Assembly: GCA_017409915.1 (NCBI GenBank)
Contig: JAFQRU010000011.1
Location: 1 to 30,143, forward strand
Reading direction: 5' to 3'
DNA: 30,143 nt
DNA from: Clostridia bacterium
GTDB lineage: Bacteria; Bacillota; Clostridia; Monoglobales; Monoglobaceae
Shown: positions 6,283 to 10,414 of the stretch, piece by piece
Layout of the letters: every line of letters begins with the position of its first letter
Numbering within the stretch: position 1 is the stretch's first letter
The notes under the pieces: generated by a model
What the model saw: the letters and a program-made list of their open reading frames with translations, nothing else
Told to the model about the DNA's origin: nothing
The model's database searches: none
Made by a program: the position numbers and the translations under genes

Positions 6283-6299
6283 TTTTACATCCTCCAAAA

Positions 6300-6330
6300 A
6301 TATATGGGAGTAAAATATACTCCCATATAT
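6300..6330 (-). terminator. Putative sigK terminator overlapping the rnhA promoter
   Basis: 13-bp perfect stem ATATATGGGAGTA/TACTCCCATATAT with a 5-nt loop, followed by TTTTT on the minus strand. Confidence 0.7.
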
Positions 6331-6357
6331 TATAACATTTTTCCTTACCTATGTCTA
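6329..6357 (-). promoter_or_regulatory. SigA-type promoter for the rnhA-M42 operon
   Basis: TAGACA-17 nt-TATAAT with an extended -10 TG. Confidence 0.7.
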
Positions 6358-6372
6358 TAAAAATATGTAAAA

Positions 6373-7056
6373 TTATTCTATCCCCCGTCTCAGCTTTCCT
6401 ACCGCCTTTTTCTCAATTCTTGAAACATAAGAGCGGGAAATCCCCAGACTGTCTGCGATTTCGTGCTGGGTATGATTTTTCCCGTCAAGGAGGCCATAGC
6501 GGAGATTTATTATCAGCCTCTCCCTTTCCGTAAGCTCAGTTTTAATATTTTTATAAAGCTGTTTTATATGTGCTCTTTGCTGTATCTCATCAAAGACCTC
6601 GCCCCCGTCGCTTTTCAGAACATCAATTAAGTATATCTGGTTTCCCTCTTTGTCAGTCCCGATTGGGTCATTTAAGGAAACCTCGCTCTGAGTTTTCTTT
6701 TTGTTTCGCATAAGCATCAGGATTTCGTTCTCGATGCATCTTGCGGCATAGGTTGCAAGTCTTACTCCTTTTGATGAATCAAAGCTTGTTATCCCCTTAA
6801 TAAGACCGATTGTCCCGATTGATATAAGGTCTTCACTGTCTGTTACCGCTCCTGAATATTTCTTTGAGATATGGGCAACAAGCCTTAAATTATGTTCAAT
6901 AAGCTTATCTCTTGCCTCCTTATCCCCCGCTTTCATCTTTTCAAGATATTCTCTCTCCTCTTTGGCGCTTAGGGGACGGGGAAAGGAATTTGCCCCCTGA
7001 ATAAAGGAGAGAAGCATCATCAGCGGTCTAAATAAAGCTTCTATTGCTTCAAACAC
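6373..7056 (-). CDS. sigK: Sporulation sigma factor K (pro-SigK), uninterrupted
   Basis: Hydrophobic pro-sequence followed by SFPRPLS, LIEHNLRLVAHI, EDLISIGTIGLIKG, RLATYAARCIENEILM and GISRSYVSRIEKKA. The GTG start at 7056 follows GGAGGTG. Confidence 0.93.
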   Translation of the reverse strand: MFEAIEALFRPLMMLLSFIQGANSFPRPLSAKEEREYLEKMKAGDKEARDKLIEHNLRLVAHISKKYSGAVTDSEDLISIGTIGLIKGITSFDSSKGVRLATYAARCIENEILMLMRNKKKTQSEVSLNDPIGTDKEGNQIYLIDVLKSDGGEVFDEIQQRAHIKQLYKNIKTELTERERLIINLRYGLLDGKNHTQHEIADSLGISRSYVSRIEKKAVGKLRRGIE

Positions 7057-7095
7057 AAAAGACACCTCCATATTTTATATATGCAGGTGTCTTTT
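7057..7095 (-). promoter_or_regulatory. Hairpin sequestering the sigK Shine-Dalgarno
   Basis: AAAAGACACCT/AGGTGTCTTTT 11-bp arms plus a 5-bp inner stem. The 3' arm contains the SD and ends at the GTG. Confidence 0.65.
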
Positions 7096-7114
7096 TAATT
7101 TTGCAAGTCCTATT

Positions 7115-7312
7115 TTATTTGTTCCAAAGTTCATCAGCGAGCTTTTCAATTCTCTCGCCCCGCAGCTTTGTTTCTTCCTCATCTTTTGAGATACTGAAAA
7201 CATCCCCCTCTTTGCAAGGAGTCAAAAGGCTAAGAGGAATGTCAAACTTTCTTTTATCCTCAGTTATAACAACTGCAATGCTTTTTTCTATTCTGTCAAC
7301 CGTGAATTTCAT
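7115..7312 (-). CDS. DUF3006-like small protein
   Basis: N-terminus TVDRIEKSIAV and the later motif LLTPCKEGDV. ATGA overlap with the upstream MBL-fold gene, a gene pair I recognise. Confidence 0.75.
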   Translation of the reverse strand: MKFTVDRIEKSIAVVITEDKRKFDIPLSLLTPCKEGDVFSISKDEEETKLRGERIEKLADELWNK

Positions 7313-10385: not shown

Positions 10386-10414
10386 ATTATACCAATTCAT
10401 AAAAATAAAGTCAA
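10386..10414 (-). promoter_or_regulatory. SigA-type promoter for the pspC-ansA-apbE operon
   Basis: TTGACT-17 nt-TATAAT with an extended -10 TG. Confidence 0.75.

Follow-up and report, generated by a model that had tools for sequence, protein, structure and literature searches.

The hairpin directly upstream of the sigK gene probably acts as a start-site-dependent block on sigK expression. Judged from the sequence, the ribosome-binding site is most likely hidden by it in one kind of RNA only, the read-through from the upstream housekeeping genes. The gene is located in the window, the whole 30,143-nt stretch of DNA from a Clostridia bacterium of the family Monoglobaceae that was analysed (contig JAFQRU010000011.1). 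The features discussed here are the following.

6299–6331, minus strand: terminator hairpin of sigK, −19.0 kcal/mol, z −4.9 in long RNA, followed by U's and then by the rnhA Shine-Dalgarno (SD) sequence
6373–7056, minus strand: sigK (TIGR02846), GTG start at 7056–7054, 227 uninterrupted codons, N-terminal pro-sequence
7047–7060, minus strand: U-rich tail UUUUGUGUUUGAAG after the core stem, with a terminator-like look
7057–7067, minus strand: 3′ arm AGGUGUCUUUU, carrying the 3′ part of the SD GGAGG and the SD-to-start spacer
7069–7073, minus strand: inner 3′ arm AUAUG (RNAfold fold)
7074–7078, minus strand: loop AUAAA (RNAfold fold)
7075–7083, minus strand: −10 box CATATATAA, with CAUAU, its first five bases, serving as inner 5′ arm; the CATA core does not vary in the genus alignment and is conserved throughout the family
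7085–7095, minus strand: 5′ arm (anti-SD) AAAAGACACCU, pairing with AGGUGUCUUUU and lying in the promoter spacer
7102–7110, minus strand: −35-type box GGACTTGCA, corresponding to G[GT]AC[TC][TG]GCA at 17–18 nt before CATA in 73 sigK loci
7115–7312, minus strand: DUF3006 gene, the last of the co-directional run, stop codon TAA at 7117–7115 (ORF list; Pfam PF11213, 65.3 bits)
10386–10414, minus strand: sigma-70-type promoter match TTGACT-17-TATAAT with TG, before pspC (consensus scan only)

The product of the sigK gene matches the SigK equivalog TIGR02846 with 329.6 bits (cut-off 298.65) and the SigE model with just 228 bits (cut-off 348.6). The GUG codon is regarded as its start, since GGAGG stands 8 nt upstream, the codon aligns with the ATG of sigK in the relatives, and the in-frame ATG at 7071–7069, five codons 5′ of the GUG, is out of frame in two members of the genus. 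This ATG was considered as a leaderless start and was rejected; it lies at the predicted transcription start, and the genus retains its sequence within the inner stem. The initial annotation had pointed to the lack of a skin insertion in sigK. The gene is indeed one uninterrupted frame, but it is not special in this respect, as most of the sampled loci are uninterrupted.

Genes encoding PspC, an asparaginase, ApbE, an MBL-fold protein and a DUF3006 protein precede sigK on the same strand, confirming the pspC-ansA-apbE-MBL-DUF3006 run that had been read from the sequence at the outset. The sigma-70-type match at 10414–10386 precedes pspC and is a possible source of read-through RNA. A consensus scan between this match and sigK revealed no convincing terminator, in line with the initial annotation, which had seen none other than the hairpin itself. 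The stop codon of the DUF3006 gene is located 4 nt before the −35 box of sigK, and the gap between the two genes is 58 nt. The genome encodes SigE and SpoIIID, both above curated cut-offs. The gene following sigE in this genome is not sigG, which could therefore not serve as a positive control.

The hairpin spans positions 7095–7057 of the minus strand and consists of 11 base pairs, a G/G mismatch (G7084 opposite G7068), 5 further base pairs and a 5-nt loop. Along this strand the DUF3006 stop codon TAA is followed by GGACTTGCA, an A-rich stretch with AAAAGACACCU, G7084, CATATATAA, AUAUG, GGAGG, UGUCUUUU (7064–7057) and GUG. In the inner stem CAUAU (7083–7079) pairs with AUAUG (7073–7069). The SD sequence GGAGG (7069–7065) and the adjoining UG are enclosed in the stem, which ends at 7057, one base 5′ of the GUG codon, and the core stem is followed by the tail UUUUGUGUUU. 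This is exactly the structure that the initial annotation had described, with the SD covered and U-rich sequence behind it. Its RNAfold energy, suggested there as a check, is far below that of shuffled sequences: the 81-nt context folds at −25.2 kcal/mol, compared with −10.0 ± 2.3 kcal/mol for dinucleotide shuffles (z −6.49, 0/200). The 39-nt hairpin alone folds at −20.4 kcal/mol (z −9.75), and the core stem without the A/U base at −16.1 kcal/mol (z −6.9). The structure and its stability are confirmed. The hairpin matched no family in Rfam 15, the best scores of 15.9–22.4 bits standing against gathering scores of 79–175.

A candidate promoter surrounds the 5′ arm of the hairpin. The CATA-core −10 element that had been noticed inside the hairpin is CATATATA(A) at 7083–7075, and the window's CATATATAA box lies 18 nt 3′ of GGACTTGCA. 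The sigK upstream regions of 102 further genomes, all from this family and order, were collected. The two-block motif G(G/T)AC(T/C)(T/G)GCA, 17–18 nt, CATA(A/T)A is clear in 73 family-and-order loci, so that the −10 element proved to be conserved at a distance of 17–18 nt from a G(G/T)ACTTGCA box. In a further, named sample of 80 genomes the variant G(T/G)(A/T)CA(G/T)(G/A)CAC-N17/18-CATA, which can also be written GTACAGRCAC-N17/18-CATA, was found in Clostridium, Paenibacillus, Parageobacillus and the Bacillus cereus group. The mother-cell promoters, which depend on sigma-E or sigma-K, have a CATA-type −10 and an AC-containing −35 box. Consensus logos for both sigma factors have been described (PMC517825). 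The sigK motif has the geometry of these mother-cell promoters. With the C of CATA placed at −14, according to the usual spacing, transcription of sigK is predicted to start at about 7069 (±2), at the first G of GGAGG and past the 5′ arm. A search among public RNA runs listed none with this sequence. The 5′ arm (7095–7085) forms the 3′ half of the promoter spacer, between the −35 (7110–7102) and −10 (7083–7075) boxes; thus, RNA started at the sigK promoter cannot contain the 5′ arm. The predicted leader of only about 13 nt, with the SD sequence at its very 5′ end, is unusually short.

The 5′ arm of the window also contains AAGACAC, which resembles the SpoIIID-type core RRACA. The sequence GGACAAAA(A), which is similar to the SpoIIID-box core RRACA(A/G), occurs in the sigK promoter spacer of L008, L009, L012, L036, L049, L054, L066, L067, L080, L083, L084 and L101, at the place where the window has AAGACAC. 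The 5′ arm of the window may therefore double as a SpoIIID site.

The consequences of the two possible RNA start points for the ribosome were modelled as the opening energy, the free energy needed to unpair the ribosome site (−15 to +3).

RNA from 60 nt 5′ of the −10 box: opening cost 21.7 kcal/mol
RNA from the predicted start: opening cost 4.4 kcal/mol
RNA with a shuffled upstream part: opening cost 8.1 kcal/mol
RNA with the sigK promoter region of another genus as its upstream part: opening cost 6.9 kcal/mol

RNA beginning at 7069 or 7071 folds at only −8.6 kcal/mol, no better than shuffles (z 0). The predictions support a ribosome site that is closed in the long RNA and open in the short RNA. 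A small hairpin of the sigG type in the gene's own leader, with both arms 3′ of the start, was considered and rejected, as the 5′ arm is encoded 5′ of the −10 box.

We propose the following route for the control of sigK. The five co-directional housekeeping-type genes and the 58-nt gap would leave no room for a separate terminator, and polymerase coming from upstream would transcribe the whole sigK promoter region into RNA. In this read-through RNA, the spacer sequence AAAAGACACCU would pair with the SD and its spacer, AGGUGUCUUUU, and the −10 box CAUAU with AUAUG, so that the ribosome-binding site would be closed as far as the last base 5′ of GUG. Part of the read-through transcripts would probably be terminated at the core stem with its tail UUUUGUGUUU. 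In the mother cell, polymerase carrying sigma-E or sigma-K would start at about 7069, downstream of the 5′ arm, and the RNA, beginning at the SD sequence, would hence be translatable. We infer from these features the start site, the occurrence of read-through and a block that would act on translation, on elongation or on both.

Within the genus, the stem is kept in six of the eight members, with opening energies of 18.3–21.8 kcal/mol, and is weakened in L004 (10.2 kcal/mol) and L008 (10.8 kcal/mol). In the alignment of nine sequences, the named structure reaches 79.9% pairing, compared with 40–59% in slid registers. The initial annotation had made its proposal depend on a conserved stem and had suggested looking for covariation in relatives. 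The stem is conserved, but the window's own register displays no covariation beyond shuffles in the nine-sequence genus alignment, which is attributed to the 3′ arm being the nearly invariant SD sequence. Several changes in the 5′ arm are A-to-G or C-to-U and give G-U or U-G pairs on the sense strand and mismatches on the antisense strand. The evidence from the genus is thus one of conservation and strand-specific wobble, and not of compensatory change. A metagenome scan yielded no relative above 62% identity, and the genus alignment stays at eight genomes.

Helices between the sigK promoter region and the ribosome-binding site recur in other lineages. A locus was counted as positive when its opening energy exceeded that of all 40 shuffles (family-and-order loci). 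Positive loci make up 22 of the 73 family-and-order sigK loci, 14 of 47 in the named sample and 8 of 30 in the metagenome sample (replicate sample only). Only 2 of 160 random SD-bearing genes of the window's genome were positive under the same treatment. The mean opening energy over the 73 loci is 11.0 kcal/mol with the cognate promoter region, 7.8 kcal/mol with a non-cognate one and 7.6 kcal/mol with a shuffled one. Such a helix is absent from about 70% of the sigK loci, among them all 22 from genus g12, showing that it is an optional device and not a requirement. Of 38 positive loci, 36 have a sense RNA that folds more stably than its antisense (−25.1 versus −18.2 kcal/mol), and the difference is smaller in the negative loci (−15.2 versus −12.5 kcal/mol). 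This bias points to RNA of the sigK strand and not to a DNA site.

The pairing partners differ between lineages. The spacer pairs with the SD sequence in the window's genus, in L025, L027 and L124 and, as judged by eye, apparently also in the Christensenellaceae metagenome-assembled genome L112. Roughly half of genus g10 and members of g2, g4, g5 and g8 use the −10 box GCAUAnnAAU, which pairs with the start codon and the bases around it; the last spacer bases pair with sigK codons 2–4. In Bacilli and several loci of the Clostridium type, it is the −35 box that pairs, either with the SD sequence or with the first codons. In 11 aligned loci with the −10:start-codon register, both partners have changed in 9 of 17 pairs; the score for covariation is 0.373 versus 0.156 (0/500 shuffles), with 0.02–0.12 in slid registers. 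As these loci were chosen for forming the helix, the count serves to illustrate compensations and would be biased as a test. Evidence free of this bias comes from the rate compared with shuffles, non-cognate partners and control genes. A single universal register between the −10 box and the start codon is not enriched over the 73 loci (12.8 versus 12.6 pairs). The sigK helices are lineage-specific, with at least two registers.

In the Bacilli L146, L160, L182 and L254, the −35 box (G)ACAGACAC finds its complement at the sigK start, and the helix spans the whole promoter and leader. In some of them the box matches the first codons GUGUCUGG or AUGUCCGG of an N-terminus M-S-G, and in L146 the SD-to-start spacer AGGUGUCUG. 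Many clostridial sigK genes (L109, L116, L120–L123, L128, L140, L145, L162 and L181) carry the extended SD GGAGGUGC, where the 16S tail would predict GGAGGUGA; the GUGC of this extended SD is complementary to GCAC of the conserved −35 box. Candidates among cultured organisms for the same design are Clostridiaceae bacterium 35-E11 (L113), Haloimpatiens lingqiaonensis (L114) and Fictibacillus enclensis (L146); the window's own organism is an uncultured metagenome-assembled genome.

A helix that acts on upstream-derived RNA is expected where the upstream gene is co-directional. To classify the context of the loci, up to 1200 nt of flanking sequence was taken and the closest open reading frame of at least 90 codons was used, 250-nt flanks having proved unreliable. 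Positive loci account for 27 of the 67 with a co-directional upstream gene and for 3 of the 34 with a divergent one. Fisher's test gives p 0.001, and 0.002 after near-identical genomes are collapsed; the loci are related, so these values overstate the significance. The positive rate is 11/21 at gaps of up to 30 nt, 8/21 at 31–80 nt and 6/20 at 81–200 nt, and the relation between gap length and helix strength among the co-directional loci is a trend only (Spearman −0.13, p 0.30). The window, with the DUF3006 stop codon 4 nt from the −35 box, is the extreme case of this context. The loci L091, L093 and L100 of genus g10 have a clear promoter-to-ribosome-site helix beside a divergent gene, with no apparent incoming transcription.

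The promoter conservation, the difference between 21.7 and 4.4 kcal/mol, the recurrence of the helices and their link to co-directional genes support the distinction, drawn in the initial annotation, between silenced or terminated read-through RNA and freely translated RNA started by SigE or SigK. The support for interpreting the hairpin as a device of this kind is comparative.

It is unlikely that the hairpin is just the intrinsic terminator of the pspC-to-DUF3006 operon, placed in the 58-nt gap and overlapping the SD sequence as a by-product of compaction, with no separate role in translation. As in a terminator, the tail UUUUGUGUUU comes after the core stem (−16.1 kcal/mol), and there is no other terminator between DUF3006 and sigK. 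The U run is intact in the six genus members that have the stem and broken in the two that do not, so that the two members with the weakened stem also have a broken U run. The consensus scan did not call the hairpin. However, L006 and L007 keep the hairpin even though a strong terminator of the upstream gene itself stands immediately 5′ of the −35 box there. The sigK helices as a class lack a U-rich tail (3.4 U in 8 nt versus 3.3 in the null; at least 5 U in 5 of 36), and many of them end within the coding region; what they have in common is a buried SD sequence or start codon. For these reasons, we rank the translational lock first. Some termination is expected at the window's hairpin, and it is likely a local addition to the lock.

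A further argument for termination is that the sigK terminator overlaps the rnhA promoter in the same genome. The promoter match TAGACA-17-TATAAT for rnhA, at 6357–6329 of the minus strand (−10 box at 6334–6329), overlaps the 5′ arm of the sigK terminator. The predicted rnhA start at about 6322 falls within the 5′ arm of this terminator hairpin; thus, rnhA transcripts would not form it. RNA folded from 6322 reaches only −6.9 kcal/mol and forms small stems that are different from and weaker than the terminator. The overlap appears to follow the same start-site-dependent design as the region 5′ of sigK.

It is quite improbable that the hairpin belongs to a genuine sporulation transcript from a second promoter further upstream, where it would delay early sigK translation until the downstream promoter takes over and thus serve timing instead of insulation. 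Such an arrangement of promoters is found at the sigK gene of C. difficile, with a mapped sigma-E-type P1 upstream, a sigma-K-type P2 and a SpoIIID box between them (PMC5025042). In the window, however, no CATA-type box is present in the approximately 150 nt upstream of the −35 box, which are DUF3006 coding sequence, and the association with co-directional genes is expected for read-through and not for a private P1.

The chance is very slight that the complementarity is accidental or a DNA-level feature without RNA function, either an inverted repeat for a dimeric regulator or a match forced by a SpoIIID-type box AAGACAC and the SD: although the 5′ arm resembles the RRACA core and the 3′ arm is mostly SD, so that other constraints act on both, and no covariation is seen within the genus, the z scores of −6.5 to −9.8, the UCUUUU between SD and start that has no other known constraint and yet complements AAAAGA, the wobble pairs that work only on the sense strand, the relatives' loops of 3 to about 60 nt between covarying arms, which fit an RNA and not a protein site, and the 2/160 control genes all stand against it.

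Beyond the window, we lean towards the view that the burial of the ribosome-binding site by sigK's own promoter is a widespread and repeatedly evolved extra control of sigma-K in endospore formers. The anti-RBS arm would be the −35 box, the spacer or the −10 box depending on the lineage, codons 2–4 would have co-evolved with the promoter, and the device would occur mainly behind a co-directional gene. Untimely sigma-K activity damages spore formation, and the known safeguards are sigma-E/SpoIIID-dependent transcription, excision of skin and processing of pro-sigma-K. A read-through lock would, if true, add a further and purely cis-encoded safeguard. It would also explain how sigK can be placed only a few bases behind vegetative genes in small and tightly packed genomes. 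The wider interest lies in the recurrence across the Firmicutes and in the co-evolution of promoter and coding sequence, of which the helices would be a natural example, promoter DNA and coding sequence having come to form an RNA helix.

The start-site-dependent burial of a ribosome-binding site is already known from T4 gene e, sigG and IS10, whereas no report was found for sigK: a literature search for a hairpin at the sigK ribosome-binding site found none, which does not show that none exists. The window shares with the read-through type represented by T4 gene e and sigG a stable helix over the SD sequence, a promoter that brackets the 5′ arm, as judged from motif conservation, and co-directional upstream genes. 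Rho-independent terminators are similar in that the window's stem-loop directly follows a stop codon and is succeeded by U-rich sequence, with an A-tract upstream as in bidirectional terminators. The window differs from them in its long, AU-rich stem with an internal mismatch, which holds the −10 box and SD of the next gene, and it belongs to a class of helices without U-tail enrichment.

For sigG of B. subtilis, a helix of at least 20 bp has been proposed to block translation of the spoIIGA-sigE read-through RNA, and transcripts of the sigG promoter are unable to form it (PMC5942855). The initial annotation cited the small leader hairpin of sigG as its precedent. This precedent is correct, but the closer one is the large read-through hairpin (PMC5942855), the small 5-bp hairpin being a different device located inside sigG's own leader. 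The large hairpin and the one in the window both place a sporulation sigma-factor gene behind co-directional genes and would set a helix against read-through RNA. The upstream genes are sporulation genes at sigG and of housekeeping type at sigK. In the window, furthermore, the 5′ arm is the promoter's own spacer and −10 box, and the predicted leader is about 13 nt long.

In the T4 genes e, soc, 49 and I-TevI, the late promoter lies within the DNA specifying the 5′ strand of a helix that sequesters the ribosome-binding site (PMC3014915). Their SD and/or AUG is sequestered in the early transcripts initiated upstream, and the late transcripts without that strand are well translated, with an approximately 100-fold effect for gene e (PMC3014915). 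The T4 system concerns phage genes and gp55 as part of the alternative polymerase, whereas the hairpin in the window would concern a cellular developmental gene and a sporulation sigma holoenzyme. In IS10/Tn10, transcripts that enter from outside reportedly form a duplex between an upstream segment and the ribosome-binding site of the transposase, the fold-back inhibition of Davis, Simons and Kleckner (1985; cited in PMC13181058), and transcripts from the element's own promoter are said in the same work to start inside the pairing region. There a mobile element is protected against chance promoters at new sites, whereas sigK is a fixed chromosomal gene beside a defined operon.
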